In this document: positions 7,489 through 64,000 of the stretch, in pieces
How positions within the stretch are numbered: position 1 is the stretch's first letter
How the letters are laid out: each line of letters starts with the position of its first letter
From: Schmidtea polychroa
Taxonomy: Eukaryota
NCBI GenBank assembly: GCA_044892525.1
Contig: CM097885.1
Span: forward strand, 162,626,001-162,690,000
Length of the DNA stretch: 64,000 bases
Direction of reading: 5' to 3'
Translations under genes and position numbers: made by a program
The notes under the pieces: model-generated
The model's database searches: none
Seen by the model: the letters and a program-made list of their open reading frames with translations, nothing else
Told to the model about the DNA's origin: nothing

Positions 7489-8390
7489 TGTTGGGTTAAG
7501 AATAAAATAGAAAATTCTTCTCGGTTGATAAGGTTTTTCTTGTTTTAATCCATTTAAAATAGGTAAGTGGTAGACTGAAACGATCCATATAGCAAAGAAA
7601 TCGCAAAAAGAATACTTAAAATCATTTAAAAACATTTAATAAAACAAAATAGAAACATAACAAGTGAAAATAAGAAAAACAAAATTAATAAAATCGAAAG
7701 TCACAACCAGTTACACTTGAAACATACGATAAGGAGCATTAAAACAAAAAATAAATCACCGAAAAAAGACATACAACTACAGAAATTACCATCGTATCCA
7801 TGGGATATGGATGGTATGTAAAGGCGATCATTTAATTAAACAGGATTGAAAAGAAAAGAAACAGTTTTAAAATTAATTAATAAACAAATTTAAATAAACA
7901 AATAAATAGACCAATCAAAATGATTGGAATTTGAAAGTTAAAAATGATCATTAAATCAAGTTATAAAAATCTATATAAGAGACCGTCTCCGGAGACACTT
8001 TACCTTTCTTTTTAAAAAATTTCAGATTTAAGATCAGCTCTACAATAAAAAGAACCGTTATAATTTATAAACAAACCATCTGGGCAATTTATATTCTTTT
8101 CGATATCTGAAATTCGATCACTGAAGTAATTTTTGTTGATTTCATATTTATGATCCTTTTAATGCAAATATTATGTATAATTTTCTATGATATTAAACGT
8201 TTACTATTTGTTTTCTTTCTTTTATGGTAATGAGTAAATAACTTTCTATTTCACGAAATAAGGCAGGTTCTAAATTTGTTTAATATTTTCGACGTAAGAC
8301 CTTCTATCGGCAGTCTCGAGCCCGATGAGAATGGCTGCAGATGATTAGTCTTAAGTCAAGGGCTCACCTGCTTTGTGTTGGACCAGGAAG
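7489..8390 (+). mobile_element. Truncated member of the TGTTGGG long-LTR family
   Basis: Starts TGTTGGGTTAAG, followed by a strand-biased A-rich tract. 8345-8372 matches the family 3' motif (TAGTCTTAAG..GGCTCACCTGCT). No 3' terminus or TSD found. Confidence 0.45.
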
Positions 8391-9030
8391 AGAAAAATTT
8401 CTTTTTAATCAAACATTCAATTATATTTTTGTTTGATCTTAGAATCTTGTTTTTTTCTTAGTTAGGAGGTTCAACATTGAAAATTATGAGAGAAATAGAA
8501 TATTTAGATAAAAAAATAGGAATTAAAATGAGATCAGATAAAATAAAAGTTTTAGTAAACTAGAAAAATAAATAAAATCAGAAAAAAATACGAACAGATA
8601 GGGTGCTAATCAGGATTAAACGAAATAAAATAAATTGAGAAAACCTATAAATGAATAATTAAATTAAAAAAGTAAAAAAGGAACAAATTAAAAAATAAAA
8701 TTAAGATTAAGAAATAAAATTAAGATTAAGAAATAAAATAGAAAAATCAGTAAATCACACAACTACTAAATCCTGATTGGATAAGACAGTGGAAAAATCA
8801 ATATATATATATACAAGTAGCTTAGTTAGATTTTCCAATGTTATTTTTATTAAATCTACTATAGGCAAACATTCGACACCTGTTCCTACAAGCTGACTAA
8901 TTCAGGCTAAAACCAGGAACTCTAATCTATTCAATTCCGTTTTATTTAGCAGAACCATATTCGGGAAAATGTAATTTTTTATTTTTGTTATTAAGGTACC
9001 ATTGAATCTTTATGTATAAAAGTAGACTAT

Positions 9031-11850
9031 TGTTGGGCTGGAAAGAGACGATAATTTAAAAAAAAATCATAGGAGAAAAACACTAGGAAATAAAATAAAA
9101 ATCATAAATAAATCAAAAATGAATTAAAAACCTAGACAAATAAGCATCAGGAATAAATAATAACAAATTAGTTAGAGAAAATTAAAACGAAAAATAAAAA
9201 AATGAAAAATTAAGATAAGAAAACCGGAAAAAATAGTAGAATAATATAAAATTAAATAATAAAAAAGAAAATAAATAAAAAATAAGGAAACAATAAGGAA
9301 ACACTAAGAAAAACCACGAAAACCAAAGACACCGAATTAAAATAAAGAATTACACAGCGCCCAATTCTGATGGGTCCGCACAAACGCAAAATTAAGTATA
9401 TAAGGGAAACACTGAAATAAAATTTTCAGTGTTAACCCAAATATTATTTAAGACCTTTAAGGACGAACTTACAAAGCACTTCAAGAATCCAACTATAACT
9501 CAAGGACTAATTTCGGAAATCTTCAAGCCACAAATCACTCGAGGATCCATTTTCATTTTCAACGGGAAAGATTAAAAGAGTAAAATTAAATATTTTAAAT
9601 AAATAATAGTTTTTCCTTGCTTGCCAATTGATTAAACTAAATTATTATGAATTACAGTCTTACCCCGGTTAACGTTGTTAAATGGTTCCAGAAAAACGCG
9701 ATGTTAACCGAAACAACGTTATACGAAGCAATTATAATTAAGAAAAAAATTCGCAATTAAATAGATTTAAAAGATTAAGAGAATTTTGATATTATGAAAA
9801 TTAGATTTAATTCTTTATTAGAATATGTAATATATAATAAAATAATTAATTACATAATATTATGTACAAAAAAAGATTTTAAAATAACACCGCTTGCTTA
9901 GTTTTTGAAAAAACGGTTTTATTAAAAAAAACGTTACAGCGAAGCCACGCAACGTTACAGTGGGGTATGACTATAATGGTGGACCGACGTTACAGCGAAA
10001 CAACTTTATTCGGGGCAACGTTATCCGGGGTATGACTGTAGTTAAAAATTTTTATGATATATAAATATGATTATGCTCCATGAAGCGGGCGAATGAGTTA
10101 CATCTTTGATTATAACATTTTGGATTTTCGATGTGTAAATATGATTAAAGTTTTTAAATTGTCAATGCATTTCCGCGAAGCTGAGGTTCAGCTGGCCACA
10201 GCTCGAGGGACACTATTTGTTCCTCTTACCAGAAGGTCGGATGTTACTTCAGCGGCGCAGTGGTTGAAAACGGGTCATTGTGGGGGTTTCCTCACTGATC
10301 TGTCGCCACAAGAGCGAACCAGAAACTCGCGTCGATTGAATGACAATAGTTTGGATAAAATGAGCAGGAATTTTTGCAAGCGTCACTCGTGAATCGTTTT
10401 TTCGCAATGATTAAGGTGGTCGAGTCGTCGTCTGTCGTGCGTTACTCCAGGAAAGTATACTTTATCGATCGTCATTTTCTGATCACCGAAGCTCGCGTTC
10501 ATCGTCGGATTATTATCCCAGAAATTCCAGTGCCAAATTTTTGATCTTTATCAGTTCAGGTCACCCACCATCACCAAATAGTAGAAATGGTAAATGGGAC
10601 TACCATATTGCTTTGACCAAGAATCTTTTTTCGGATAAGCCACGCCATGACGAACTTGAGAATTTCGGATAGATTTGCCTCGATAGACTCGCCTTAATGA
10701 ACGAACCGAGCCGAGAAGGCGGCAGAATTTTTCACGTCTCAGTAAGACTAAGCTCACCTCGTCAGGATAAACGAGTTTCTAACAAGTCGATGTCATGATG
10801 TTAACTAATTTCTACTCGTGGTCGATCAATGTGGGATGATGTAAATGTGAAAAAGCCGATACTATCGTGATTCCTGATAAATTTTCTGATATCATTGACC
10901 ACCCGCTAACAACCCTATCCGAAAGGTGGTGGGGATTTACACTCGAAATTCAGCTCGTCGGATTATCTTCGCAGGCACGGTTAAGTACAGAAAGCTCGGT
11001 TACTGAGAACTAACAGTTGAATTTAGTATGACCCACCAGCAGAACTAGACAATCAGTAAATATATATCAGTCGGTCATTCACACAAAACCGAAACCCGAT
11101 TGTAGACAAAATATTGACAGCCATCCGATAACACTACGTGATCAGTTCTAGCGCTTCTAACAGAATAGCATTACCCACCACATGCAACTTAACGTATGCG
11201 CATAAATTGCAAATGCCTACGATAGGAAAGCGCAGATTTTGTCCTAAGGCGATCGTCCTAAATGTATTTGCTGATCGTGTTTTTATCAATACATCTTATT
11301 GTTGTGACTAGTAAAAATATTTTCGTGTTATGAATCGACCAATTAAGTAATTGTGAATGTTTGAATTGGTGTTGAATTTGGTAGTTAGGAAATTCGGTAG
11401 TGGATAATGGTGGTAATGATGGGAAAGTATACGGTACGATCGACCTTGCAGGGTGCAGATATGATTTGAATGTGGTAAATCTTGCGGTTGCGTGTTGGAT
11501 AGAGATAGGTTGGCGAATAGTGTCATGATGGAGATGGTTCAACGATGTGAATGATGTGCGACATTCCTGAATGATGAAAATGACGTAAGTCCTTCTAACG
11601 GCAGTCGAATGTTGGTTAAGTCGAGTTGCGATGAAGGAGTAGTCCTAAGGCAGGAGCTCACCTGCTTCATCGCAGCTCGCCGACATGGCACAGCACCAAC
11701 ATGATGTAGATCATGGGTGTCATGCTCGGAACCAGATCGTGTGGGAACTGGGTTAAGGGTCCCTTACGAATGAGGCATGTTGTTTGTATATTAAGGGCTA
11801 TCATCCCCTAGTAGACGGAAATGATGGGTGACCCGACCCAAGACCCAGCA
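9031..11850 (+). mobile_element. Long solo-LTR-like element (TG...CA), copy 1
   Basis: Termini TGTTGGGC / ACCCAGCA with 4-bp TSD CTAT (9027-9030, 11851-11854). Colinear with 46155-48663 over most of its length. Confidence 0.85.
9655..10038. mobile_element. Tc1/mariner-type MITE nested in the solo LTR
   Basis: TIR CAGTCTTACCCCGGTTAACGTTG vs rc CAGTCATACCCCGGATAACGTTG, TA TSD. The homologous site in copy 2 (~46890, TATGAATTAG) is empty. Confidence 0.9.
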
Positions 11851-13764
11851 CTATGTAATTTTATTTATAACAATTAAAAATTAAACGATAACGTTTTTCT
11901 TTTTCCTTTAAAACATTATAACGATTTTCTTTAAAATAAAAGTGCAGTAACCGATTTGATTTTTATGATTTTTATGATTTTTATGAATTTTATTCTTTTT
12001 ATTCTTTTTATGAATGTGACCGCATTGAACTATGTTCGTAAGGTGTTGGCACTCGTGTTGATGCTAAAGCGGATGTTTGCCAGTTCAGAGCATTGGTTGA
12101 GAAATTGAGATAAACGATAGGGTTATCTTTAGAAGTGTAGATATATTTTGACAGATTTTTGAGTGTAATGCAGTGAAACCAAGGTTGAATGGAGAGCGTT
12201 TTTGGCATTGAGGTAGAATTCAGTAGGAGATTTCTGAAATTCCACGTCAGCAATAATAGATCCAATTGTTAGTACCAATTGCATAGGTACACGATAGGAC
12301 ATAGATGTCAATGTAAATCGTATTTCAATTTCCAGCGTAGAACTGGATTTACAAGTTAGTTAGCGAGGACGTTAAATCATATAACTCGGAAAGAGAATTG
12401 TCGTCATTCTGGAAGAATGACCAGTAGAAAGTTAAATCGTAGACTACAGCATATTCTAGGTAGACACAGTCACAAATCCACTCCCACCGTTAGCATTAAA
12501 TCCAAACATTAGATATATACGGTCAGTAGAGCCGAGAACCTGCAACATTCGAAACCGTGAAGATTATATAGTCGTCATGATAACTTCCACCGTAAAACAT
12601 ACTGCTCAATAAGCAAATCTTTGAGAGAGAGATGATAACGATAGTAGATCACCACCAACCTAGGCATGTACCGCAGTAGTATTCAGTAATGAAGTTAATA
12701 AAACTAAAACATCGGCAAGATTTGTTAACATGATATTTATTTCTAATGACAAGCGAATGTTTTCACATATTAGACCAATCTGATAGGAAGAATAGAATCC
12801 AGAAAGTTAAAGTATAATTAAACGTAAATATTGATTCTCAATTAAGACAAATAACATGTGGACTATGAACTTCCGAGAGAAATTAGTCGAATTGAAAGAC
12901 GAGGCGAGTGAAACAAAGTCGATAAGTGATATAACGATGTCGAGCAATTATTAAAATCGGAATTGATTATTTACATTTAACTATGATTTTGTAAATTTTA
13001 TGAAATATCGTAATTGACCTAAACTTCCGTAGTTAGCTGTACTTACAAGAAGCAAACGCATAAATATCAAATCATATTTTTCATTATTAAACATAAATGT
13101 TAGGGATTGCGATACGATGAATAAGTTTACTTTAATTATAAAAAATAATGATACTTGTAATAAATTCGTTCTGAAACTCGTGGTAATCCTAGTGAGAGAA
13201 TCCACCACATCTCTTAATTTCTCTGTCGATTTTACGCGTTTATTCCTATAACATTTGCTCATAAAATTTATATTCGAGTACAAGGAGCTAATGGTAGACT
13301 GACTGACAAGCTGATAATACTGTTGGATGATGAAGGTAGGCACATCACCACATTCAATCTCAACAAGTATTATAGGACTGGGCCCAGAAAATATAGAGTC
13401 AATGTATGCGCTGAAGAGCGTAGGTAAATCAAACAGCTCAGCAGTCCAATTCCACAACAATCCAATGCCTCAAACAATAGTAACAACCAACAATTCAATT
13501 CCTCAATTAAATTCATCAAATGATAACAATAACTTTTGTGTGATGAATCGTATCAAACTTTATTAACATTGACCTAGCCATTTTTTATTTGTGTATAAAT
13601 TTTTAGTGTATTTTACTTTATTGACATTATCAACACTCTATGTGCTTTTAACCTTATTTATTTTTATTCATATTTGTATGTAAAATTTTGATTATATTTG
13701 ATTGTAAATTTTATTGCTAAACACAAAAAATAAATATGTATATAAAGGGTAATTGATATTTATA

Positions 13765-14466: not shown

Positions 14467-14670
14467 TTTAAAATCAATTATTGTTATTCACAATCTGGGG
14501 GATAGGAATTGAGATCAGAGGGTTATAGTGTTTTATATTGGGAAAATATATTTATAATAATAAAATTATCATTGACCAATTTTAAATAAATAAATTCAGT
14601 TTTTTTTTATTTATCAAGTAACTCAAAAAAATAAAATAGATAACCAACCCGAAATAATTTAGTCTATAGG

Positions 14671-15845
14671 ATGAACAATAATAATAACTTTATTAAAATT
14701 TTACCAGTAGAACCATATAGAGGAGAGCCTGAAAAGTTCGACGATTTTTTCACTGAGATCGCTCAGTATGCAGAAGCTTGTGGTTGGACACCTGATGAGT
14801 TAAAAATGAGAATCCCATTATATTTAAAAGGTTATGCGTTACAGGCATATAATAATTTAGAATGTAAAGAAAATAATTTTGATCAACTCGTAAGATATCT
14901 GAGAGCAGAAATAGTAATCGATAGTGATTTACAAAAGATAAATGTTCAAAAATTTAGAAACAGATATCAAGGTACTAGAGAATCAGTTGGTGAATATGAA
15001 TATACAATTACGGAGTTAGCGAAAAAGGCATTTGGTGCAGGCGAGCACACAGCAAAATTAATTGAGGATCAGTTTTGGAATGGTATACAAAAATATTTAT
15101 ATAAAATTTAATTATGGTTGAATATGGTAATTTAAATGAATTAGTTCATAAAGCTAAGCGTATAGAAGCAATACAACGAGATAGGTTTAGTTCACATGTA
15201 GATGCAATGAAAATCCAAAAACCCATAGAGGTAAAATCTAAGTTGGGTAAGTCAGATGACAACATCCCCTGGGAGGAGATGAAGCAACTATATTTGAACT
15301 TTGTAAAATATAGACGAAGGGTAAGCCCGAGTCCGGATAGAAGTCAATCACCTGAAAACAGGAGGAGATTTGATAATGTGAGAAACAGAAATTTTGAGAG
15401 TAGAAACAATAGAAACACTTTGGATAGAGATAATCGATATGAATATAATAGAAATAATTATACGAGAGATAATCAAGTCGATTTTAGTAGAAATAATTTG
15501 AGAAATGATAAATATGATAGAAGTAATAGATATGATAACAGAGATAATACAAATGATTTGAGACGTAGACAGACAAGTCCATATAGACAGAATTCATATA
15601 GAGAAAGGCGAGGAAGCCCTTATAATAATGATGGTAGAGATAAAGTAAATTTTAATGGACAGATTAAATGTTATAATTGCCAAAAATATGGCCACTTAGC
15701 TAAAGTATGTAATAATGCGCGAAGCGAATCGCCTAATAGAGTGAGATTTAAAAATGAGCCTGAGATAAAACAGATTAATAGTGCTGAGTTGATATCAGCT
15801 AATGACGAAATAAACAGTTTGAGAGAGGAATTAAAAGAATTTTAA
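14671..15845 (+). pseudogene. Gag (capsid + CCHC nucleocapsid), one frameshift
   Basis: Gypsy capsid motifs (PYRGEPEKFDDF, W..IPLYLKGYAL, QGTRESVGEY, DQFWNGI), an R/D/N-rich linker, and zinc knuckle CYNCQKYGHLAKVC at 15669-15710. Confidence 0.92.
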
Positions 15846-15881
15846 ACTCAATATGGGAGACTTATTGAGAGAAAACTAGAA

Positions 15882-17179
15882 ATGTCATTGAATGAGTTTC
15901 AGTGTTTTACCAATGATGTAGATATAGATAATGATGAGTTTCGCGAAGCAATAGAAGCGGATGAGAAATTTCTTGCAGAAGCAAATAGATGTAAAGAATT
16001 AAAAGAGGAATTGAAAGAGATTTTAGAAAAATGGCCTTATGATGATAATGAGACATTACGTATAATAAATAGAGTTCAAGTCGAAGGAATTGACTTAGAA
16101 TATTTGAGAAATTTGATACCAATAATGGTAAAGAGACAAAATATGACTAGAGTATTTGAATTAGAAATAGAATTGAAAGAAATGATAAAATGTTATGGTG
16201 AGTTTGTGAGAAAAAATCAGAAATTACATGAATCATTGTATATAACTATTGAGGCAAAGGACCTTTTGAGAACACTTATGCGTAGTACAGGGGTACATGT
16301 GTGCACAAAAGTGAAGAAAGTGAAACAGATGGCCAGAGCTAATTGGCCCGAGAAATTGGGAGATAATGATAAAGTAAAACTGTATTTCAACGGGGTAGAA
16401 ATCATGAATAACGAATATATAATCGACTATGGGGTAAACGTTTTTGATTACAATATTATTTCTGCCGTAATAGAAAGGCAAGAAAGTAAGGAAATTGATA
16501 CACCAACTCCATCAGTGGAATTGAGTATAAACGACGAAAATGACTATGACAAATTATTTAGATTGTGGGATGCTTCTTCAGGAGGGGCAATGAAGTCACC
16601 AACAGCTAGCGATGAAATCTTTAAACTTATTGATAATAAGTGTGATAATTTACATGAGACAATAGAAAAAATTGCGAAACAAGCAAATATGCAGGATGCA
16701 GAGACGATGAGATGAGGTAGAGGAAGGCCTCGAAAATCTGAAATAGCCGAAAGTCAGATGACAGAAAGGCAGCAGAGCGTTTAAGAGATATTGCAAATAA
16801 TATGAGACAAGAAGTTCCAAAAAATCAGGATAATGACAAAGATATAAATATGATAACGGAGTTAGTTAAAGCAATGAATATGAGACGATTCCCAGAAGCA
16901 AAACCATCAGCGTTAATAGAAAATATAGTTAAAAAGATTAAATTAATGGAAAAAGAGATTAGAGAATTGAGTGCAGAGGAAGCGAATGAAGAGACAGTGT
17001 TAAAGATATTATTTACAACCGGAGTCAATCGGGATAAAGTGATTACGGCGATGGCATATTTAATAGCAAGATACAAAAAACTTTTGCGAATGAATCCAAA
17101 GAATCAAATAGAAAATATTGCTAAAATGATATATAATAAACTAAAGATAAATGCTATGCCATGGATAAGGAAAGCGTAG
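15882..17179 (+). pseudogene. Uncharacterised Gag-env spacer region with ubiquitin-like domain and AT-hook
   Basis: In frame with Gag after a single TAA. TKVKKVK..KVKLYFNGVEIMNNEYIIDYGVN resembles a Ubl fold. MR*GRGRPRK (~16707-16738) is an AT-hook with TGA in place of CGA. Confidence 0.55.
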
Positions 17180-17280
17180 GAGACAATATTAATGTAGAAA
17201 TAGATGATAACGAGGAGACGGTAAAAAATCTAGTAAATAAAACAACCATGAGACCAAGTCAAAAAGAAAGAAAGTCGACA

Positions 17281-19150
17281 ATGTCAATAGTAATTATAGT
17301 AATAACATTATTGTTAGATCTGATAAAAGGAAATAATGCGATCATAGCGTATGACTGTCAGAACCCCAAGTGGGGACAGAAATATTCATTATTAGATGTA
17401 GAAAATTGCCCAGAGGCTAATCCAACAAAAATAATTGTGGGAGATCCAATGATTTTTCACATATATCAAGTCTGACTTCATTCACACTGAAGCAGGAGAA
17501 TGTATCGTTAAATATTCAGAGGAAAGTTTTGTGTGTAATAAAATAGCAAGAACAATATTAACTCCAACATGGGCACCAGAAGCGATAATAATAGCACCAA
17601 TCGAATGTGAAAATGCATTTAAAACAAAAAAGATAAAAACGCCGGATGGATTTGAGTTAAATGCTCAGGTAGGAGCACGAGTAAGGCAATTAGTAAATGT
17701 CGTGGGATGGTCATCAACAGGAGGATATTGTGAAGGAGGAACGTATAAAATATGGGGGCATGTGGCAGACAATATTGTAGTGAGACGACAATATTATATT
17801 GAATTAAGGAAATTCAAGGCGTCATTTGATAGTTCATCAAAGAAAATGATGACACATAAGTTCTTTACATTAGATGAGACAAGCTGTGATACAGGCGAGT
17901 CAATGATCATATACAAAGTAAAAAATACGAATGCCATTTAACTAAACTAAAGACATTGAAATTCAGAACAATACGAGGTAAACAGTTCACGGATGTAGAA
18001 TCCAAGAACATTAAAGACCAAAAACGACGAGCAACGATAATTCAAGAGAGAGATACACCAACGATATACATGTCAGATTCTGAAACCGAAGCGATGAGAT
18101 TTGTGGGAAAAGGTGAAAGTATCAAATGAGGAAAAGCAGTTATACAAACAAATTATGAAGGAATTTATATCAGCGGAAGTGAAATTAAAGAGGCAAAATC
18201 GAAAATAGATAAATTCGACGTTAAGCTAGCGTCATATTTTAATAATAAAATTGACTATTTTTATCATCATCACTTAGTACAATTGGACAAAGTATACCAA
18301 GCAACTATTGCAAACGATTGTAAACTTAATAGAGAAATATTAAGAACAAAGATGGCGGTTGCAGTCACAAACCCAGATTTAATGGCACAAATTTTATTTG
18401 CAGAGAAAGGGACATTTGCAAGAGTTGCCGGTGAAGTGATACAAACATTTCAGTGTAAACCGGTTAGCGTATCGTTAGCAACGAATAATAAGTGCACAAA
18501 CGAATTACCAGTAGTATATAAAGGGGAAACTGTGTATCTCCAACCAATAACAAGGATATTAACAGATAAAGACTATGTTCCGAGAAAAATTGATAAATAT
18601 ACAAATCTACTAGATCCGTTATACAAAATAAATGATGATATGTGGATTACAATGTCAGATAGAAAGGAAGCGACTAAACCACAAAAACTAGAATTAACTG
18701 AACTTGAGAAAAAGTTAGAATTTCAGGAAGTCAACGAAATGGATAACAATGGAATGTATACGAGAGAGGCGATAGAGAGCGCTAGAAAACATATGCTATT
18801 TCCTCATGAAAAAGAAAAAGTTCTTTCAATTATGGTAAACAAAATCATCGAGAATAGTTATGGAGGGAATTACAACTTTGATGTATTATTATCAAAAGAG
18901 CACTTCAAGAAAGTTGTATATAGAGTATTATACAGCATATGGGGACATTTTGCGATTCTCAGAAATACGTTTTCCACTATATTGGGTATATATTATACAC
19001 TAGCACTACTGAAAATGATTTGTTCATCATTAGTTTCGTTAAGACAACTGAGACAAGTTTTTGGTAATTCATATAAAATGATGGCATGTTTATGTCCATT
19101 CATAGCGAAATATTTGATCACTGCGAAGCACGACAAAGAAATCAAACGGA
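17281..19150 (+). pseudogene. Chuvirus-like envelope glycoprotein (env)
   Basis: Signal-like MSIVIIVITLLLDLIKGNNA, then IIAYDC..YSLLDVENC, GYCEGGTY, C-x-LNREIL..NPD..GTFARVAGEVIQTFQCKPV..CTNELPV..YLQPITRIL, and C-terminal hydrophobic W-x-x-F..ILGIYYTLALLK. This Cys/motif series matches chuvirus-type glycoproteins captured by invertebrate retroelements. Two frameshifts and one TGA. Confidence 0.82.
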
Positions 19151-19399
19151 TGAAAAGTCGAAGGGAAGAGGGTGAAATAATGATCACCAATGAGAAAGAT
19201 GACGAGGCAAACAAATCAGAAAATATTGAGCATCCACATATTGGGTTATATGATAATCAAAGTGAACAATTGACAGAATTGAGAAATAATATTGAAATTA
19301 GAATCCCAGGTGAAAATGGTAATTGTCATTGTGTTCCAAGGAAAACTTATGGATGTTACGGGTTAGAACTTGACGATATATTAGAAGGGTTAAATGAAG

Positions 19400-21295
19400 C
19401 AAGGTCTAAATTACAAATAGTGATAAATAATACGATAATAAAGGCATTATGTGACACAGTAGCAGCAGCTTCTATGATTCGTGAAGATCAGTTAACCGAA
19501 AATCAAAAGAAAAATATCGTGAGCACAAGAGATAGAGTAATTTCATTATCACCACATTACATACCATTAAAAGGCGATATCGAATTAACAGTCCACTTTT
19601 CAGATCAAGTGGTTGAACATGTTTTCAAGGTAGTAGCAGAATGTAAATGCGTGTGTGTCCTTGGGATGGACATACTCAAATAGTTAAAAAAACTGTGTAA
19701 TTGATTTAACGGATAGTACAGTCAAACGGAAAGCAATATATCAAGACGCAAGATTTACTGAGGTAATTGCATTAGAAGCATTCAAACTAGAATATCAAAG
19801 TGATCATATAATTCCAGTGAAGGTTAATGTTAAAAGTGAGGACACTTTCATTTTCGAGCCTGAAACGGCAATATCACGAAATCATAATGTAATGTTAACA
19901 GACGAGTGTGTAGTTCCAAATAATGGGATAATTCCAATAAGAATCGCGAATTACGAAAGGAATAAAGTAAAAATTCATAAAGGTACAAAATTGAGAAAGT
20001 TGTTCAAAGGTGAATTAGAGCAAACATTTGAAGTATGTGAGATGTCGATGACGAGTGATGTCAGTGAAGGAATGGTCGAACAGAGTAGAGCGAATAATAT
20101 TAAATTTTATGATAAAATTAAAATAAATAATAATTATCTAAACGAAACACAACAACTACAACTACAAATATTACTTGACGAATATAGTGATGTTTTTGCA
20201 AAACACGAATTTGATTTAGGAGATACTGATATTATCAAACATGTAATCGATACGGGGAATGCTAGACCAATAAAACAGAGACCCTATAGTGTACAATATA
20301 AATTGAGGGAGGAAATAAAACGACAAATTAAATAATTAAAGGAGGCAGGCGTAATAAAACAAAGTTTTTCACAATGGGCATCACCTATTGTACCAGTTAG
20401 AAAGAAAGACTATCGTAAAGACTTATCGTAAATTAAATGATGTAACAGTAAAAGATTCTTACCCATTCCCGAGAGCACAAGAACAATATGATAAACTTAG
20501 GGATACTAAGTATTTCACAGTAATAGACGCAAATAAAGGCTACATGCAAATTCAAATGGAAGATGGGGATGCGGAAAAAACTGCTTTTGTGATTGAGGAC
20601 GGTTTATATGAATATACAAGATTACCTTTTGGGTTAACCAATGCGCCAGCAACATTTCAACGTTTAATGAATACAGTACTAGTAGATGTACAACATTGCA
20701 CAGTATATATGGATGACATATTAATATCGTCAAAAACATTTGAGGAACACTTAAAAGACATAGCAAATGTATTACAGAGATTGAGAAAAGCGAGAATTAA
20801 AATAAAACCCACTAAATGTAAATGGGCAGAACCTTCAGGATTATTCTTAGGACATATAGTCACAGTAGATGGTATAATACCTAATCCCGATAAAATTGAA
20901 GTAGTTAAAAAATTTCCAGTTCCAAAAACATTACAACAAGTACAGGGATTTTTAGGTCTCACAGGATATTATCGTAAGTTCATACAAGATTATGCAAAAA
21001 TAGCAGCACCACTAATTGAATTAACAAAAGGAGTTAACGATAAAATTAACAAGCCACAAAAGAAATGGAAAGATGAACATCAAAAAGCTTTTGATCAACT
21101 AAAAGAAAAATTAATAACAGCACCGATACCCAGACTTTAAAAAACAGTTTATTGTCATGACAGACGCCAGCGGGAAGGCCGTAGGGGCAGTCTTAGGACA
21201 AGAAGAGGAAAAGGGTAAAGATTATGTAATAGCTTATGCAAGCAAAACATTAAAAGGAGCACAGATTAGGTACTTAACAATTGAAAAAGAATGTT
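19400..21295 (+). pseudogene. Pol: aspartic protease, RT, N-terminal RNase H (truncated)
   Basis: ALCDTVAA (DTGA with G>V) and VLGMDIL; FAKHEFDLG; WASPIVPV; FGLTNAPATFQR; YMDD at 20706-20717; FLGLTGYYRKFI; MTDASGKAVGAVL. Breaks off after TIEKEC. Confidence 0.95.
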
Positions 21296-27395: not shown

Positions 27396-27495
27396 AGGGT
27401 AATCCTCGATTGTTTCTGTGCACTTCCTCTAATTCATAAAAAATTAGAAATTTTACGAATATGTAAACTCAAGTCAATTTGTAAATAGTTTCATC

Positions 27496-28395
27496 ATGGA
27501 GAGCAGAGCCCAGAAGGTCTTAGTACATGAGCAGTCACAGGCCCTGAACCAGGTCTATACAACGAAAGAAATTGAATCGAGAATCTCGTGATATAAAGAG
27601 ATCGTCAATAACACTATCGTCGCAGCACACTATCTAATGCCGGACATTCTCTTCTCACCTTCGTGGGCAGGATGCTCTTTGTTAGTATTTACGGCTGGCA
27701 CCAAACACCCGTAGTCGTGAATGTGTCACCAGTAGTCGCACCATGAACCTAAGCGTGCCTACCCCGTTGCCAACAAACTCAAAGCCAAAAAGAAGAAATT
27801 TATCAAAGGCGGAACGTAACGCCAAGAAAAAAGCAAGAATAGCAGCAGCACTCGCTCAACTCAATGAAATCATCAGTCCACCGAACTTAACGATCGAAAT
27901 GCCCGAAAATGAGTTTGAACTAGACGTTCTCCTGGCGGACTGGAGCGCAACGGATGGTTTATTGATGACAAATGTTCTGGAGCAATCATGTCAAAGATTC
28001 GAATTTGATTTATCCATTATCTTTCTTTGTGGTTAATTTAATAATGAACTACCTTAATTGTGTTTAGTGCTTTTGTTTTGTTGCGATGAAAATTCAAGGA
28101 GAGGAGGAAAGTGTTCGCGCAATGGATGAAGTTGAAATCTGAGTCGAGTAACGTCGCCATAGAAAACAAGTAAGCCACAAACGTAATTCCCTCTAACGGC
28201 AGTAAAGAACCCGTTGGAAATGTAAAGAGTTGTAAGAGGGTAGCTCAACTACTATTTATTTTCCCATTGACAGTGGGAGTACCAACATGATAGTTGTCAT
28301 GGGCACACTGATCGAAATCGTTCTAAATCATGAGCGTTTGAGCACTAAGTACAAAATCAACTATTAGCGGAGTTTTTTTAACCCGAACGCCAACA
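27496..28395 (+). mobile_element. 3' part of a long-LTR-family element with embedded fossil ORF (27496-28036)
   Basis: 28186-28306 matches the family motif (CTCTAACGGCAGT, AGCTCA, ACCAACATGA..TCATGGG) and ends ACCCGAACGCCAACA. The ORF remnant ESRAQ..QSQALNQVYT is homologous to the one at 63010. Confidence 0.7.
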
Positions 28396-30538: not shown

Positions 30539-32928
30539 CCATTCAAGTAGAACTTTCCCATTATTTTATAATTCAATATTTTCTTTTAGAACGAAAGAAA
30601 ATTGACGGCGAAACATCAGTGAGTTTCCCCAAATTGCCTCTCAGATTCTAGCCAATGCATTAAATGGCTTCTGATTGGCTGTTTTTCCTCTAATAGGTAA
30701 GAGATTTTATTATATTATTTATGTGAATATTATTAAATATTAGTCATTTTTTCGTAGAGCAGAAAAATCTAAAAATGTATGATTCTCTGTAGCTTCTTTT
30801 AATTGAACTTTGGCAATGGATATTGATTTTTCTGATATTTTCAATAATTTAGAATGTGAAATTTCCAAAATCCGGTCAATAATTTGTTACCAATTTATTT
30901 TATTATTTATTTATTCTTGCATGTAAATACTGCCATGATTGAAAGAAAAATATGCGAGTAAGCGGGGTTTCGGTTTATTAAATTAAAGGATTTATTCTGT
31001 GTACCTGGATTTGATTAGAATTTTTAAAATTTTAGAATTATTTTTAATAATTAATATTTTTGGATTTAATTCATGAACCGTGCAAAATATTTAACCTTTT
31101 CAAAACAATTTTTTTTATATGTTTAGCATACTAATAACTTTTTGGAAGAGAATTATGTGCTTTGGTTTTAAGTAATAAACGATGCCAAGATTATGCTAAT
31201 GGACCATCCTGCTAAATTTCTGGAAATTTTTTTAAAAGTTTACTATTCTGTATTCAGCAATTTTTTTGTAACTAATGCGATTTATTTGCTAGCCCAGTAC
31301 CAACAATTTATGGAGAAAAGTTTACAAGTTGTTTTAATGAATTATATACATGTTAATGATTCAGGTTTAATTGAAAGTTACTTTTATTTTTTTTTTAAAA
31401 AGTCCTTAGATTGAACATTTTAATATCCACGAGGAAAAGCAAAATTTGTCGCATTTTCAAAAATTTATTTAGAAATACTTTCGATATTTAAAGAAATTGA
31501 AAATTTATTTTAAATTAATCAAACGTTTTATTTGATTATTCAAAATTGGATCAATTAAAACAAACTCAATATTTTAGGTAGGTTTTAAAATTTATACAAT
31601 ATTTGTCCAAATTGAAATAACTTTTTATTCTTTCCAGTTTATCACAGGTCGTATTTTTATCAATTATAAATAATTATTTATCAACAATTAAATAGTATTT
31701 ATCCATACATCTTTCGCNNNNNNNNNNNNNNNNNNNNNNNNNNNNNNNNNNNNNNNNNNNNNNNNNNNNNNNNNNNNNNNNNNNNNNNNNNNNNNNNNNN
31801 NNNNNNNNNNNNNNNNNNNNNNNNNNNNNNNNNNNNNNNNNNNNNNNNNNNNNNNNNNNNNNNNNNNNNNNNNNNNNNNNNNNNNNNNNNNNNNTATATT
31901 GTTGATGTAAAAATGAAATAATTATTATTTGTCTTTTTTAATCTATTTTTTTTGCATGTTATTTTTATAATAAAATAGAAAAATTGTTAAATTATTTGCA
32001 TTCAATTTATGGTTCAAATACGATATGTAATTCCTAATATTTTGGCAGTGATATTAAATTTATAACAATGGATCGTGTGTATTTATTATTCTTTAATTAA
32101 TATTTTATATTGTCTTTTTACTACTCAATTTATATTATTAAAATTTCAATTTTAATTTTCATCATTGCTTGAAAATAAAACGGTTTGTTATTATTCGACA
32201 ACTAATATGCCGAAAAATTATGGTTACTGACATAGAGTCATTTAAAGAAATTGTTCTTATGATAAAGTATTGATGTATTTGAGTGTTCATAATATCACGA
32301 AAATATTGTTGTTTAATTTCGAATATTATTAAATAAACAATATATTAATAAAAACACATCTAAATTTGCGATTGCTGAGGGATTAAAGTGATGTACTTAT
32401 AATAAATTTTGTTAAATAAGTGATACGTGGCAAGGTTTAGTGCAAAATTTATATTATACTATATTTACTATATCTAAAAAGTAAAGGTAATGAAAAGTTG
32501 ACTGCCAATTTGTGGATGTACATTCACTGATACACCTACATGACTAATTATTAGACTGAAACCATTTTATCTATTTTATACAGCTTTTACCTGTTGTAAT
32601 TATTAATAATAAATTGTCGCAGCCCATTATGGCTATTGACAACCACACCTTTCCAATTGTTGTCCAGGGTAGCCAAACCCCGACAATTGGGAATGTGTAT
32701 GTTGTTATTTATAAATTAAAAGTTTTATTTATTATTTATACATTTTTCCCTTTAATTATTTGGGGTTTGACTGATGAGCTACCAATTAATAAATGANNNN
32801 NNNNNNNNNNNNNNNNNNNNNNNNNNNNNNNNNNNNNNNNNNNNNNNNNNNNNNNNNNNNNNNNNNNNNNNNNNNNNNNNNNNNNNNNNNNNNNNNNNNN
32901 NNNNNNNNNNNNNNNNNNNNNNNNNNNN

Positions 32929-35798: not shown

Positions 35799-35899
35799 TT
35801 TATTGATGTAACTCAATAGAGCAGGGTTTTTTGTAAACTTTTGTTTAATTACTGGGTTCCCTGCATTTTTATTTGTATTTGATCTCAATGGATAGCCTG

Positions 35900-38800: not shown

Positions 38801-39291
38801 GAGACCCTCATAACATCTGCATAGTATATTACTTCGCTTTTTGGTGGTACTTCCAATGTTTGGTTTAGAAATACCTCTCCTACTTCAGGCACTACTTCAC
38901 CCATTTGTCCTTTTATTAGTTTTCCAGTTCTCAGATCAAGAGAAATTCCATGTAGTTGCTCCATGACATCCATGCCAATAAGACATTTTACAGGACTTTT
39001 TCTCATCACTGATACCCAATGAATTATTTCTTGATCTCCAATTATCAGTTTAACTTCTAATTTTCCAACAATATTTAGTGCATTATGTGACATTGATTTA
39101 ATAATGTGATTCGTTGGTTTTATTTTGGCTTTCTCCTGATACGTCAAGAAGCTTTCCGCTAATATAGTATGACTTGAGCCTGAGTCTAATAAAGCTTCCA
39201 CTTTTCTCTTGTTAAACTGTATGTTTATTCGAGGTTGTTTTCCTCCTACTACTGTTGTCATTAGTGCATAGCTGCATGGTAGACCAAGCAT
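35900..39291 (-). pseudogene. Pol: PR-RT-RNase H-integrase (GPY), three frameshifts
   Basis: ALLDSGSS; FGLTGAPATFQR, YIDD; TDASN, TDHNPL; HHCC (H..GGH..CHTC), MDIVGPLP, TDQGTNF, VERFNGTL; FKGPY. Confidence 0.96.
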
Positions 39292-39321
39292 ATTCTTTCT
39301 TTCAATTTCCGTACTCGTTGG

Positions 39322-42180: not shown

Positions 42181-44519
42181 TACTTTTTTTTCTTTGTTAG
42201 TAATTTTTTTACATTATTTTTAACACGGTTTGTTTTACACGATTTATTTAAATTTACACGATTTTTTTTACACGGTACCTATCCACCTATCCATACCTAT
42301 CCATGTGGTGCAATTGACATTTCTAAAAATAATTAATTTGCCAATGAATGGCCAATTGAACATAATTTTTTTTAAACCTAATTTATTTTATCGATATCTG
42401 ATTTTATTTTAGTTTGTCTAATTAAAATCGGACTAATTTAATTAATGATACTCTGGATAGATATTGTTAGTTTAGATGAAATTGTAGAAACAAAAAGTAT
42501 CGTGGAAAAAATACGTTGTATGACCGTTTTTATCAAGTGGTGGGTTTCAAATAATCAACATTTTACCTCGTTGTGCTGTTTCCAGCGTAACCAGGAATAC
42601 ATACATTCGACCGCTTGGTGCCCGTTGAGCAATCAACGTTGGTACTGTACAAAGGGTTTGAATACCAGCAAAAAGTGGGTATGCTTGGCCTACTATAATT
42701 GTCCAGTACTCACTTTGGTCCACGGACTGCCGATAGAAGGCCAATGTCCGATTTTCTCGGTCCCTTAAATTTCAGATTGTGTGGCCGAATGATCAAATTT
42801 TATCACAATTCATGCAAATATACGATTTAACATAACCATAAACATAAATTTAATTTTTAATAATACATACGATAACAAATGTTTATTGTACATCATTAGA
42901 CTCTATTGGGGCCGTTACTGGAAGTCCTGGAGTAATTGGCACGTGGGCTAATTTCGCCTGTCGTTGCCTGACTGGTGCTGATTTAGCTAGACGTATCTTT
43001 TTCCGAGGTGCAACAGGAGGTTTAGAATCGCTGGGTTTGTCGATCAGCTCTGACAGAGGCTATTGATTGTTATTTAAACGACAAAATTTATACAGTCCCA
43101 CAATTCAGAATAATGTCTAAAAATCATCAACCGTACAGCATAAAAAACCATAAAACTGCAATCAATTGCAACAACGACAAACGTAATTGGGTAGCAAAAA
43201 ATAAAAGTTTTGCATATGGGCACTATCTGGAGGATGATACTTTTATAGATACAGGCGGTCCAGATGTCTCCAGATGCTGATGATTTTGAAGATTCTGAAG
43301 ATCAAGAATCGCTAACATTGAATCGATATTTACAACGGAGAGGGCAGGAATTGCGCGATCAACCGTCAGAAACAAACTGATAAATTTTGAGTAAAATTAT
43401 TATTATTATAATTATTATTATTATTATTTTTATTAATAATTATTATTCTTATAGAATCCTGTAAAGAGAAATCGAAAAGAAAATACAAAGATTATTGATT
43501 GAAAAATTGATTGACAATTATAATAAAAAATTGATTTTTTTAAAAATAAATTCTTTTATTTTTTATTCAATTTTATTTTTAAATTTTATTAAAAATTTTT
43601 ATTTTTAAAGTATNNNNNNNNNNNNNNNNNNNNNNNNNNNNNNNNNNNNNNNNNNNNNNNNNNNNNNNNNNNNNNNNNNNNNNNNNNNNNNNNNNNNNNN
43701 NNNNNNNNNNNNNNNNNNNNNNNNNNNNNNNNNNNNNNNNNNNNNNNNNNNNNNNNNNNNNNNNNNNNNNNNNNNNNNNNNNNNNNNNNNNNNCACATGA
43801 ATTGAAAGGTCTTTGTTAATATTGTTAAGATTGTTAAAACTGCATTGTTTTTGTTAATATTACTTTCAATTTGTTAACACATATATCGACAATAATATTA
43901 AGTTGTAGTAATTTAGACTATGGTTAGACGGGGGTTATATTCATATTCACTCTAATTTCTAATGGTTTAAATTAGCAAAGATATATAGTAGTTCGATACA
44001 TACCTAAACCAACACATTTAGCAAATCCGGGATACATTATATCCAAAAACGAATTTTAACTCACAAAAGTTATACATTCACAATGGTCAGTTATAATTAT
44101 TACAGATTTAATTATTTAAAATTTCAAAAATCTAGTTGTTTAAACTAGTCAATAAAATCACTCAATTAAATAAACATTTGATTATTCTTTTATTAAAGAA
44201 AACTAAGACCCAACAAAATAAATTCTGCTATTAGAATCCAATGTGAGGAGGTGAGTTGCCACGTGTCGGTATTGTATTGCAATCCCTAACCGCAGTGGTT
44301 GTAAGTGGCAAAGTTCAACCAAAACTACCAGGTAATTTATTTTTTAGATTTTTAAATTGTTTAATTTTAGAAATTAATCCCTCAAAAATTTGATTTAAAA
44401 AATTAGAATTTGTTCGCATAGTATCTTTAAAGTATTGACGTTTATACAGTGACAGCATTTAGCATGCTAATTTATTTATTTTAAATTTGTCTAATTCGAA
44501 TTTGATATTATCTACAAGA

Positions 44520-46154: not shown

Positions 46155-48663
46155 TGTTGGGCTGAAAAGAAATCAACATAAGCAAAAATTAAAAGGGAAA
46201 AACACTAAGAAATAATACAAAAATCATAAATAAATTAAAAACCAAGACAAACAAACATTAGAAATAAATAATAACAAATTGGCTAGAGAGAATTAAAACA
46301 AAAAAAATAAAAAATCAGGATAAAAAGACCGAGAAAAATAGTAAAACAATGTAAAAATTAAATGATTAATAAGAAAAATAATAAAAAATAAAGAAACACT
46401 AAGAAAACCAACAAAAAACAAAGAAATCGAATTAAAAATAAATAATGAAACAGCGCCCAATTTTGATTGGTCCGCACAAACACAAAATTAAGTATATAAG
46501 GGAGACACTGAAATAAAATTTTCAATGTTAATCCAATCAAGGAAACAAATCACTCGGAGATCTATTTTTCATCGTGTACATTCATGTATCATTCACAGAG
46601 TGTTAATCCAACCATTTTTAAGACACAGTTATACAGCATTTTCAAGGAACTCAAGGAATAATTCAAGGAACTTTCAAGGAAACAAATCACTCGGAGATCT
46701 ATTTTTCATCACGCAGGGAAACAATTGTTGAGAAACTAAGTAAAATTTTGTTTGTATTTATATGAATGATCTATGAAATAAATACTTAGGTTAAATATTT
46801 TGATATGATTAGTATGGAAGTTTTCTTAAATTAAATGATTTTAAAAAATGTTTTCCTTACTTGCCATTTGATTAATTTAAAGTTTTTATGAATTAGATAA
46901 ATTTTATGTTATAGATAATGCTTATGATTTTTCGATATTTAAATAAGACCATGTTTTATGAAATTTTAACGCATTCCGCGAAGCTGAGGTTCAGCTGGCC
47001 ACAGCTCGAGGGACACTGGTTGTTCCTCTTGCCAGAAGGTCGGATGTTACATCAGCAGCGCAGTGGTTGGGATCGGGTCATAGTGGGGGTTTCCTCACTG
47101 ATCTGTCCCCACAGGAACGAAAATAAGACTCAGAACAATAAAGTAAAAGATGTTTGGACTAAAATCAGCATGAATTTGTAAAACGTAGTTCGAGAGTCTT
47201 CGCAATGACTAAAGTGGCTGACATATCGCTCGTTTTGTGTTACCCCAGAAATTTATAATTCTCGACTTTCACCTGTCGTCGTTATAATCGTCTAAAATCG
47301 CGTTTACCGTCAGTTCGTGCTCGCAGAAATTCCGGTACAAGATTTTTCGAACTTTATCGGTAAGAACCCTCGTCATCACAGAACGATAAAAATTCTAAAT
47401 ACGACAAACAGTGTTACTTTGGTAAAAATTGCTTTTCTAATAAATCCCGTCACAACGAACTTGAGAATTTCCAACTAAAATAGTTTTGCCTCGTTAGACT
47501 CATCTCGAGGAACAATCCGAGCCGGAAAAACGGTAGAATTTTCATATCTCAGTACGACTAAACTCACCTCGCCAGGAAAAACGAGTTTCTAATAGTTAAA
47601 GTTGTACTTTTATCCAATTATTACCGTGATTGAGTCTAATTTTTAGGCGATGTGAACGCCATGAGAGTCGATCTTATCGTTAACGTTGATAACTCCTTTT
47701 TACCATTGCCCATCCGGTCACAACACTACTCTCACCTGTGGCTGGGAACTTACACCCGCAAATCTTCGCTTCAAATAATAACCACGCACCAAGATACATG
47801 TAAATAACACTGCACAGATCAACAGTCGAATTCGCACGAGCTAATTGGAACCAGATAATCAGTTATATGTATTCTATTCGATCTAATCGCGCCTGACTTC
47901 ACATAAAATCAAAATAGACACTCGGTGGTATTTCATAGATAAGTATACCTTCTAGGGCCGAGCGAACGAAGAGAAGGAGAGCTCCCAGGCTGAGAGAGAT
48001 GCGACTTTGATCGCCTCTGCTAAACACCAAGCTCCTGTACCTTCAGCGGAAGTTTTACCTCACTCTCCTCCTGCGTTCAGAGTAATACCATCCACAAGCA
48101 CCACCTGGGAGGAAGATGCCCCAGACTTCTTTGATCTCGATGAGATCTTTTCTGAGACATCGCCCAACACCTTGTGATTATGTCGTTTGTCGTAGTACAC
48201 AAATATAATTGTCGTGTGTTATTGATTAATATTAAATAATTGCGAATGATCGGTTGATGTTGATCTATTAATGAAAAATGCGGTGGTAAATGAAGGGGTG
48301 ATGAGAACGTCGTGAATCTTTGTTTTGTGTGTTAGACAGAGGTCGTTTTAGTGAGTAGGGTATCATAGTGGAGATTGTTCGATGATGGGAATGATGCGCG
48401 CAATCCTTGAACGATGAAAATGACGTAAGTCCTTCTAACGGCAGTCGAGTGTTAGTTAAGTCAAGTTGGGATGAAGGAGTAGTCCTAAGACAGGGGCTCA
48501 CCTGCTTCATCGTAGCTCGCCGACATGGCACATCACCAACATGATGCGAATCATGGGTGTCATGGTTAAGGGTCCCTTGGAACGATGGCATGCCGTATGC
48601 GCGTCAAGGGCTATCATCTCCTAGTAGTTGAAAATGTCTTATGACCCGACCCAAGGCCCAGCA
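46155..48663 (+). mobile_element. Long solo-LTR-like element, copy 2
   Basis: TGTTGGGC / GCCCAGCA termini with 4-bp TSD ATAT (46151-46154, 48664-48667). Homologous to 9031-11850. Internal CAAGGAA(ACAAATCACTCGGAGATCT) repeats at 46538-46710. Confidence 0.87.
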
Positions 48664-54745: not shown

Positions 54746-55430
54746 TGTCGCTTAGGGGTGTGTCGCGATAGTGGTTGTTAGGGGAAGTTGTATCTGCTCA
54801 GAAGGACTCCTTCCTAAACGCCCACAACGTAGTCTTTATACGACACATGTGTACCCATGACACTGGTCATGTTGGTGATGTACACACTGGTGGGAATTCA
54901 TGAGCAGGTGAGCCCCTGCGTTAGCACTATTCCTCATTTACATCTACATTATTTTCCCATACTGGTATACTGCCAAACCCCTGGTCCAGTTGAGGGAAGG
55001 CTAATAATGTGGTTTCGACGACGACTAGTTCGTCCCGTACTTTCTCCGCATGAGTGAGATGCTTACGTTTTCGTGAAGTTAACCGTTTCGAAATTGTTGA
55101 TGGTGCTGTTGGGCGCTTAGGGGAGTTTCGAAATAGATGGTTGTCAGGGGCAACTGATTGATTTGCTCTACGAAAGACTCTTTCCTAAACACCCAATTAT
55201 GATTAGCAGTTTATCTACCACGTGTGTACCCATGAAATTATTCATGTTGGTGATGTAAGGAAATCATGAGTAGGTGAACAACTACCTTAGGACTACTACT
55301 CAAGATACTCTCGGTTCGGGTTTCAGAATGACGATAGAAAGTCTTACATCTTTCTCGTGGAAATCACGTTCAATTTCCGATACACCTCTGGTCCAAATGA
55401 GGTCCTCTCAAATCACTTCGTGGCAGTCAA
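54746..55430 (-). mobile_element. Two adjacent 3'-end fragments of the long-LTR family
   Basis: Two diverged copies of the hairpin motif (54852-54933, 55227-55298). Minus-strand ends ..GCGACA (54746) and ..GCGCCCAACA (55107). Confidence 0.65.
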
Positions 55431-63001: not shown

Positions 63002-64000
63002 GTCGTGACAGGCTCCTTGAAGAAAGCCGGCGCCAAAGATTAACCATCAAGGCACAGTCAGAAGCCCTTCACCAGATATATACCGACTCGAAATTGCAGC
63101 GAATCCGAGAATTTCCGATTAAATACGGGGTTAACGTATTCCCTTTACATCACAGAGCAGATGAAATGGATACTCCGGTATTATGGTCATGTACCAGTCA
63201 TGGACTTGGATTAGGAAAAATTTATAATCCCATCCTCAGTGGGCACCGATTCCCATCAATCCATCTTCTAACTCCGCACCAGCAAATGTCGGTCTGGTAT
63301 CGCAAGGTATCGCAAAGAAACGAAAAAGGCTATCCAGGGCAGAACGCACGGCGAAACGAAGAGAGAAAATATGGATGCGCTCATCGACGCCCTGCTAGCC
63401 GAAGAGGATCTGAATCTAAACAAATCATCCCAGGAAAACATCTAAGTTCATTCAACTGTACCATTTTGTAAAAATCCGAGAGGTGACATGCTGCGAGTGA
63501 TCTTGATCTATATAAAGACCTTTTATCGCACCCAGGAACCCGCATTGCGAACCTGGTGGGTAGTAGTCTTAATGCAGAGGCTCATCTGTCCATCAGTTTC
63601 TGACCTGCGTACACGATACCAACGTGGACCATCATCATGGGTGTACGTATGGGATATTCATAGTAAATCATGACGGATGCTCGGGGGGAAAGCTGAGCGC
63701 ACAACGAACCTCCGCGGGTACCCAACAGCATGGTCAATTCGAAATCTGCTCGGACGATTCTACTCACTACTATCTCGGATCAATATTTCTTCCTCGCTCA
63801 TTTAGTACGACTGACTACAAACTGTCAATCTGTAGGCCATCAGCACGAGTGCCAACGGTACACAAAGATCCTTACAATCTGGTCCCATCGCATATAATTA
63901 TGATAAAATTAAATCAAAATTTCATACAATAAATGTCGCAGCAAAAATCTTCGTCATTGACTTTAAATGTGTTCACTATGCACTTCAAATATCTCCTGAC

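Follow-up and report, generated by a model that had tools for sequence, protein, structure and literature searches.

The structured 5' leaders of vertebrate retroviruses and of the yeast Ty elements have been mapped well, and systems of the Rev/RRE type include, besides that of HIV-1, Rex/RxRE and Rec/RcRE. The RNA described here, which lies at the end of the LTRs of giant planarian retroelements, works in the manner of a retroviral structured 5' leader; it shares no tested defining feature with the CTE, TAR, the kissing-loop DIS or the Rfam families.

The retroviral U5-leader stem and primer activation signal (PAS), in the portion of PMC11181671 devoted to them, resemble our locus in having a structured U5 beside an 18-nt primer binding site (PBS) and the integrase attachment site, and a box complementary to the tRNA T-arm upstream of the PBS, which occurs here in many copies. 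Here, in contrast, three further conserved domains lie upstream, and the box is 7 nt long and missing in 8 of 30 leaders. The 5' packaging regions of Ty1/Ty3 and MMTV (PMC4974528, PMC4264320) are likewise structured cis-acting RNAs near the PBS; a conserved exposed palindrome is absent here. With the RRE of HIV-1, as outlined in sections of PMC4488727, the RNA has in common its multiple stems and conserved internal loops and, in clade A of our elements, a predicted intronic position; the retroviral element is found in env or U3 and ours in U5, where protein binding is a prediction.

The folded RNA is absent from Rfam, while its host elements are already known. Burro/GYPSM1 are giant Ty3/gypsy elements of planarians, and their description in the Burro/GYPSM1 section of PMC6431247 fits the hosts here: it includes a polyprotein with gag, CCHC knuckles, MATH, a fusion protein, PR-RT-RH-IN and ankyrin, as well as BIR and RING accessory ORFs. 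That section, unlike the present analysis, mentions neither an RNA structure nor an LTR-internal gene. Burro-type elements are transcribed once PIWI silencing is lost in a planarian, according to the pertinent passages of PMC8532177. Our literature search yielded no account of the RNA or of the LTR gene, either of which may be mentioned in the original Burro description (Grohme et al. 2018), its supplements or Repbase, nor did it yield such an RNA defined by covariation in any Ty3/gypsy lineage of invertebrates. For the largest LTR elements known there is now a definite fold, whose invariant loop bases can be mutated in short RNA fragments, and the question of how a 30-kb unspliced RNA is exported and packaged becomes testable.

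Host LTRs and elements

The window, that is the whole 64,000-nt stretch of DNA analysed, carries eight copies of the motif. The initial annotation had named seven places, all of which do hold it; the eighth copy, at 42605-42754 (- strand), is more diverged and was absent from that list. Covariance-model scores of the eight range from 65 to 132 bits, six of them being members of the training set, which excludes 54838-54972 and 8286-8396. The LTRs and the copies beyond the focal one are as follows.

9031..11850, + strand: solo LTR of the Burro/GYPSM1 type (focal LTR), 2,820 bp, TG...CA ends, CTAT duplicated on both sides (4 bp)
9396..9436, + strand: TATA box, AATAAA and initiator-like site, read from sequence
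46155..48663, + strand: second solo LTR of the same family, 2,509 bp, ATAT duplicated on both sides, 73-79% identical blocks versus the first
48417..48573, + strand: motif copy with domains 1-3, 131 bits, training member
47974..48174, + strand: relic of the LTR-encoded gene, covering its basic and C-terminal portions; tblastn identity 52%, E 5e-16
28175..28319, + strand: diverged motif copy, candidate LTR end 28395, 79 bits, training member
27484-27633: LTR-gene remnant beside the copy at 28175..28319
63505..63657, + strand: diverged motif copy, candidate LTR end 63727, 98.5 bits, training member
63004-63243: LTR-gene remnant beside the copy at 63505..63657
55213..55355, - strand: motif copy with domain 3 partly deleted, candidate LTR end 55107, 108 bits, training member
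54838..54972, - strand: motif copy without most of domain 1, 87 bits, outside the training set
42605..42754, - strand: clade-B (30-kb Burro type) motif copy, candidate LTR end 42538, 84 bits, training member
8286..8396, + strand: truncated motif copy (domain 1 and top of domain 2), 65.5 bits, outside the training set

As had been proposed, the motif lies near the 3' end of long LTRs, of which it forms the last ~270 nt on the sense strand. The block with TATA box, AATAAA and initiator-like site recurs at about 46490-46530 in the second solo LTR. Since the TATA box and poly(A) hexamer precede the motif by 0.8 kb (locus L032) to 2.2 kb (the window), the motif appears to sit in U5 and not in R, with start sites deduced from sequence motifs; of the R/U5 placement given in the initial annotation only the U5 half is retained. 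A weak hint to the same effect comes from one contig, of a run only guessed to be RNA, with a poly(A) tail 14 nt past AATAAA, ending on CA and ~650 nt upstream of domain 1. The U5 so delimited would be 0.9-2.4 kb long. The peak of sequencing depth over the motif recurs in a second run, of unknown kind and sequenced far more deeply; contig depth is uninformative on expression.

Another copy of the focal LTR's family (locus L113) continues past the LTR end into a spacer and then a tRNA-Pro PBS, and for this family the exact pattern gave one LTR-end/PBS junction. In sequence the primer site is complementary to the end of a tRNA-Pro(TGG) gene in the genome examined (G000), namely its 3' end extended by the CCA that maturation adds. 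A pattern combining LTR end and primer site gave 711 junctions (control 1). Among the 98 PBS-adjacent LTR ends with enough upstream sequence, 90 carry domains 1-3, 6 carry none and 2 carry part of them, which puts the motif on the sense strand, immediately 5' of the PBS. The exact pattern for the hairpin-2 core matched 529 times in the same genome and its reversed form not at all, and that for clade B 1,020 times (control 0). Clade B has a different LTR end and spacer; the same primer site is present in 5 of 30 of its loci and the remaining loci are without it. In collections that contain few animals, two exact-pattern scans of metagenome contigs gave 0 and 0 matches. Viral contigs, from collections equally poor in animals, gave none with a second pattern and four loci with the exact one, of which three were scored with the model, none passing, and the fourth repeats the match on the opposite strand of a similar contig.

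Downstream of the LTR there are a RING ORF and a single long frame that encodes gag, CCHC knuckles, a fusion protein of mononegavirus type, protease and RT. At locus L104 the fusion domain (PF24664) lies between Retrotrans_gag/zf-CCHC and RVP in one open frame, and the order is the same in clade B. A clade-B element has 4.3-kb LTRs that are 99.95% identical and about 30 kb apart, with MATH, BIR, Ank_2 and zf-C3HC4.

An element with gag alone between its LTRs keeps the motif intact, and its family is the commonest in the first 30 junction loci (15/30). In this family the intact domain 1 has 1,142 exact matches versus 3 for the junction left by deletion of domains 1-3. The three consist of two independent loci, ~95% identical, and one segmental copy; a search of 20 kb beside the deletion-variant loci found no 3' LTR. 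As two loci are independent, a template without domains 1-3 must have been copied at least once, by some route. The simplest reading is that strong selection in cis keeps the motif, which does not imply a strict need for it.

The fold of the LTR end

The structural evidence is drawn from one genome and from two alignments, both made from sequence only, without structure awareness. The first has 32 rows, 7 of 39 candidates having been dropped as false or truncated; for the second, a 90% identity cut-off took 146 copies down to 42, and removal of one false match left 41. The two hairpins drawn in the initial annotation give way to a larger structure with four domains, given here for the focal copy.

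11582..11606, + strand: domain 1, short hairpin with a conserved UUCUA loop; outer stem 80.5% paired, double changes at 3/3 pairs
11623..11678, + strand: domain 2, long covarying stem with a conserved G/G mismatch and a U/CAC internal loop; 93.2% paired, double changes at 7/7 pairs
11641-11658, + strand: domain 2 cap, hairpin of 6 bp whose 6-nt loop varies; pairing 93.9%, changes on both sides at 3/6 pairs
11684..11724, + strand: domain 3, hairpin bearing an 8x1 internal loop and an apical loop of free sequence; pairing 88.3% and 95.5%, changes on both sides at 7/8 and 4/6 pairs
11735..11850, + strand: domain 4, terminal long hairpin, its base predicted to pair with the spacer in 5' LTRs (27/30 leaders)

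Across 41 copies less than 90% identical to one another, the revised 32-pair model has 91.0% of 1,277 cells paired and double-sided changes at 24 of 32 pairs, figures that lean towards the motif because the copies were found by motif-derived patterns and the model was built from the same alignment. None of 500 shuffles reached it on percent paired, on double-change cells or on covariation score, and 9 of 500 did so on the number of pairs with double changes, these shuffles taking no account of kinship. Sliding the model along the alignment left 33-39% paired. With our own tree-aware G-test, on the 42 rows including the one false match, one pair had E<0.05 and four had E<1, all four belonging to the model. 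G-U cells outnumber A-C cells by 133 to 38 in the 41-copy alignment, from which it follows that the sense strand is the folding strand; the focal copy has a folding z of -4.3 on the + and -2.5 on the - strand. Single-sequence folds of two diverged copies were no better than shuffles (z -0.9 and -1.2). When five LTRs of distant families were compared by BLAST only the motif region aligned, and the clade-B LTR gave no match at all; clade B nevertheless retains the fold.

The first of the two original hairpins, GCAGG/CCTGC, is paired in 69.0% (32 rows) and 70.8% (41 rows) of cells, as against 93.9% for the competing domain-2 cap, which is also the choice of RNAalifold. In its favour, hairpin 1 is the minimum-energy fold of the focal copy, where the cap has one mismatch and loses by energy, and it beats shuffles on percent paired (1/500); it may represent an alternative conformer in some copies. 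In the second hairpin the stem persists while the loop changes, as described; the AA bulge finds no support. The U of GGU covaries with a base that lies another 5 nt upstream (A-U 31, G-C 6, G-U 2; n=40) and, while pairable with the A of ACC in 32 of 41 copies, shows no joint change with it, so that the AA belongs to the 8x1 internal loop at 11692-11699, which ends in an invariant CCAA.

Conservation is concentrated in the internal loops, and the apical loops vary freely, the 41 copies having 22 different loops in domain 2 and 26 in domain 3. The palindrome-like GRGCUC letters lie in a stem and are variable, and a conserved self-complementary apical loop is absent from these copies, which leaves the suggested kissing-loop dimerisation signal without support. 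A TAR-like site, suggested as well, is at odds with the distance from the putative start site. In some copies, letters of domain 2 can pair with a downstream TGAGC or TTAGGA.

Domain 4 was considered in 30 leaders (28 clade-A representatives with domain 1, and 2 of clade B). In 27 of them the pairing of its box with the spacer has a predicted mean probability >0.5, and between clades both sides change together (RTCAT/ATGAT, TTAT/ATAA, TTGTAT/ATACAA). U5 is thus predicted to pair beyond the LTR end next to the PBS, as in the retroviral U5-leader stem. Since the spacer is present only after the 5' LTR, selection on this predicted stem most likely acts on the leader RNA.

Searches of Rfam gave no match in the window at gathering score and none at E<=10 at locus L174, 2250-2700. 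At 11500-11900 of the window there were six weak snoRNA/miRNA matches only (E 4.6-7.5), far below gathering. The proposal of an undescribed cis-acting RNA element in the LTR is supported by the sense strand, the covarying stems, the lack of a match to a known Rfam family and retention in non-autonomous copies. An HDV-like fold and a group I core were dropped on viewing by eye against their consensus.

An LTR-encoded gene

Upstream of the motif some LTRs carry a gene, its product ~250 aa long in clade A and with homologous exons in clade B. In intact copies its stop codon precedes domain 1 by ~110-340 nt, and the remnant at 47974..48174 is ~240 nt from it. A reading frame upstream of domain 1 is present in 12 of 30 junction loci and lacking in 18; when 1.5 kb upstream was examined, 16 of 30 5' LTR loci with the motif were without a match to the gene. 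Because the motif is kept where the gene is absent it cannot be merely the 3'UTR of this gene. Three pairs with usable dS gave dN/dS values of 0.10-0.15.

Structure prediction for the protein (pLDDT 64) gives two long helices, a disordered linker and a basic helix. The basic motif is found in 16 of 16 aligned copies, with the helix predicted at 182-213; long coiled coils are present, and clade A has an acidic-hydrophobic tail, which could equally be a transcriptional activation domain. Neither Pfam nor the PDB gave an informative match, Rev/Rex/Rec-type families included. A profile search with the protein returned 16 proteins, most of which are gene models joined to sequence of other origin; an arginine run resembling the Rev ARM is present in several, a low-complexity likeness that serves as a lead only. 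A word-based homologue search produced 612 candidates, none of which scored, and in the protein atlas nothing reached 0.9, the nearest named cluster, delta antigen at 0.79, being again only a lead. Compared with HIV-1 Rev, as treated in parts of PMC4488727, the LTR protein is similarly small and element-encoded, with a predicted basic helix and with homologues that have a Rev-ARM-like arginine run; it differs in its long coiled coils and in the lack of any sequence or family match.

In the focal copy the 5' internal loop of domain 1 (11585-11590) reads GTAAGT, a putative splice-donor site. Its GT is present in all 91 clade-A 5' leaders that have the domain, and the donor-like site is absent in clade B.

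Probable function of the RNA and the competing explanations

On balance, the multi-stem RNA is probably a protein-binding tag by which unspliced genomic RNA is selected for nuclear export and packaging. Its variable stems and apical loops, together with fixed internal loops, give it the appearance of a protein-read RNA, and the RRE IIB stem, in the portion of PMC4488727 that covers it, is a protein site with comparable fixed internal loops. Domain 4, through its predicted pairing with the spacer past the LTR end, would be complete only in the 5' leader, where it would frame the primer site. A protein provided in trans would read the internal loops of domains 2 and 3; it could be Gag, with its CCHC knuckles, or the arginine-rich product of the LTR gene. 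In clade A, splicing that used the donor-like site at the structure's 5' edge would remove structure and PBS from subgenomic mRNAs; since the structure begins at that site, it would be left on genomic RNA only. Retention in gag-only elements argues that the reader comes in trans or is Gag. As the reader within this scheme Gag is possible though far from assured, the LTR protein is slightly harder to credit, and a host factor seems unlikely. Retention in gag-only elements would fit a packaging signal (psi), which is confined to genomic RNA and bound by Gag/NC. Most retroviral packaging signals, on the other hand, are downstream of the PBS, which counts against an export and packaging tag in U5.

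A more specific version, which we put forward tentatively and regard as rather doubtful, is a pair of the Rev/RRE kind within the LTR, in which the arginine-rich coiled-coil protein would bind the internal loops of the U5 RNA and export or select the unspliced 10-30-kb genome; gag-only parasites would then keep the RNA and borrow the protein. Proteins of the Rev type export unspliced RNA by way of a leucine-rich NES. If the LTR gene is indeed the partner, Rev-like regulation would have arisen outside the Retroviridae.

The whole structure could instead mainly control annealing of tRNA-Pro and the start of reverse transcription, as the retroviral PBS segment does with its PAS, an explanation that we judge unlikely though deserving of attention. 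The structure lies immediately next to the PBS, the predicted domain 4 extends to the spacer in 27 of 30 leaders, and in 17 of 30 the linker after domain 1 has a 7-8 nt Watson-Crick run against the T-arm of tRNA-Pro, a pairing of PAS and T-arm that is known in retroviruses from the part of PMC11181671 on the subject. Set against this, the run is at most 4 nt in 8 of 30 leaders, among them the focal copy's family and families with long open polyprotein frames (it is 5-6 nt in the other 5), linker-PBS pairing is predicted in only 11 of 30, and no part of the tRNA is an evident counterpart to the conserved internal loops of domains 2 and 3. All clades share one primer, so covariation is uninformative for the T-arm box, and so is co-folding of leader and tRNA, which gave upstream linker-T-arm pairing in 0 of 30 because such pairing is a pseudoknot for the program. 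Control of priming is probably a matter for domain 4 and the linker, not for domains 2 and 3. Upstream boxes can pair with the tRNA D-arm in some copies.

Other roles are less probable still. That the RNA regulates splicing of the LTR gene's subgenomic mRNA, or acts in its 3'UTR, is suggested by gene stops ~110-340 nt ahead of domain 1 and by the donor-like GT in 91 of 91 clade-A leaders, but is improbable, the motif being intact in LTRs without the gene and clade B keeping the fold without the donor. An IRES-like element for the downstream genes would suit a leader of several kb that has 81-107 ATGs in the neighbourhood of the LTR end; acceptor-like sequences (read by eye), however, precede the RING ORF and gag, Rfam gave no IRES match, and the first Met of gag is 2.9-3.5 kb past the LTR end at four loci and ~9 kb in the gag-only family, so we consider this very improbable. 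By standard LTR biology, cutting R away from the PBS should block strand transfer, and cleavage in U5 would part the two. To the new self-cleaving ribozyme, also raised in the initial annotation, we accordingly give very little credence: the fold is compact and multi-stemmed with invariant unpaired bases, and hammerheads occur in plant retrozyme LTRs (PMC4918200, in the part dealing with them), but the ribozyme families of Rfam gave no match, either at gathering in the window or, for two copies, at E<=10, and no conserved pseudoknot was seen.

We attach as little weight to a CTE-like element that binds host NXF1. Some copies do show CCTAAGACAGG, as in the SRV-1 CTE primer listed in PMC4330393, and a donor-like site is nearby, in keeping with a position near a 5' splice site in the relevant passage of PMC4338338. 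Compared with the MPMV/SRV-1 CTE of those sections (PMC4330393, PMC4338338), however, two-fold symmetry is absent here and AAGACA is unconserved, occurring in 2 of 41 copies and then in an apical loop instead of the internal loop of the CTE; of the five pairs of a CTE-like fold, two are disrupted in 12-13 of 41 copies, and that fold clashes with the covarying stems. An element acting as DNA, through factor sites or a cDNA hairpin, is the hardest of all to credit: the motif does lie within the LTR and ends at the integrase attachment site, but the double-sided changes, the excess of G-U over A-C on one strand and the predicted pairing outside the LTR all point to RNA.

A gene within the LTR

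The LTR at locus L176 contains a conserved protein-coding gene, which is under purifying selection and has an acceptor-like sequence on its 5' side. Its product, with predicted coiled coils, a basic helix and an acidic tail, matched no known family. Remnants of the gene are found in the window.

L176:1340-2098, +, conserved protein-coding gene inside the LTR
window 27484-27633, +, LTR-gene remnant
window 47974-48174, +, LTR-gene remnant
window 60323-60520, +, LTR-gene remnant
window 63004-63243, +, LTR-gene remnant

A second structured block in the solo LTRs

In the two solo LTRs of the window a mid-LTR block is conserved far above its flanks, with folding z-scores of -3.6 (first LTR) and -3.2 (second). 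No BLAST match to it was obtained in other families among the LTRs of distant families compared.

window 10165-10305, +, block in the first solo LTR
window 46970-47110, +, block in the second solo LTR

Complementarity to tRNA-Pro and LTR-PBS junctions

Clade B elements (L182, L192, L196, L200, L206) have a second T-arm-complementary box approximately 20 nt 3' of the PBS, and in L192 this is paired with the tRNA in the predicted co-fold. Part of clade A (L051, L055, L060, L063, L067, L069) has an extra hairpin some 35 nt 5' of domain 1, in which the stem varies while the loop is fixed as TTGGACCA; judged by eye, this hairpin is complementary to the D-arm of tRNA-Pro. The tRNA-Pro(TGG) 3'-end pattern gave 2,205 matches across the genome (G000).

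G000:C1:130901009 onward (L081), tRNA-Pro(TGG) genes in tandem array, period 475 bp
G000:C1:77268880-77323122, five LTR-PBS junctions, period 13.5 kb

The latter is the gag-only family in tandem array. At three of the 98 junctions (L107 and two like loci) the same spacer and PBS are preceded by unrelated, coding-like sequence that lacks the motif.

Other features of the window

window 14644-21291, +, broken Burro-type internal region
window 35343-39924, -, broken Burro-type internal region
window 32779-33654, -, open frame
window 61499-62680, +, exact tandem duplication, 382 bp

Both Burro-type regions have the fusion-protein gene followed by protease and RT. The open frame has no Pfam match; its start, judged by eye, resembles a DEDD-type exonuclease. 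The duplication overlaps a fragment of hAT transposase.
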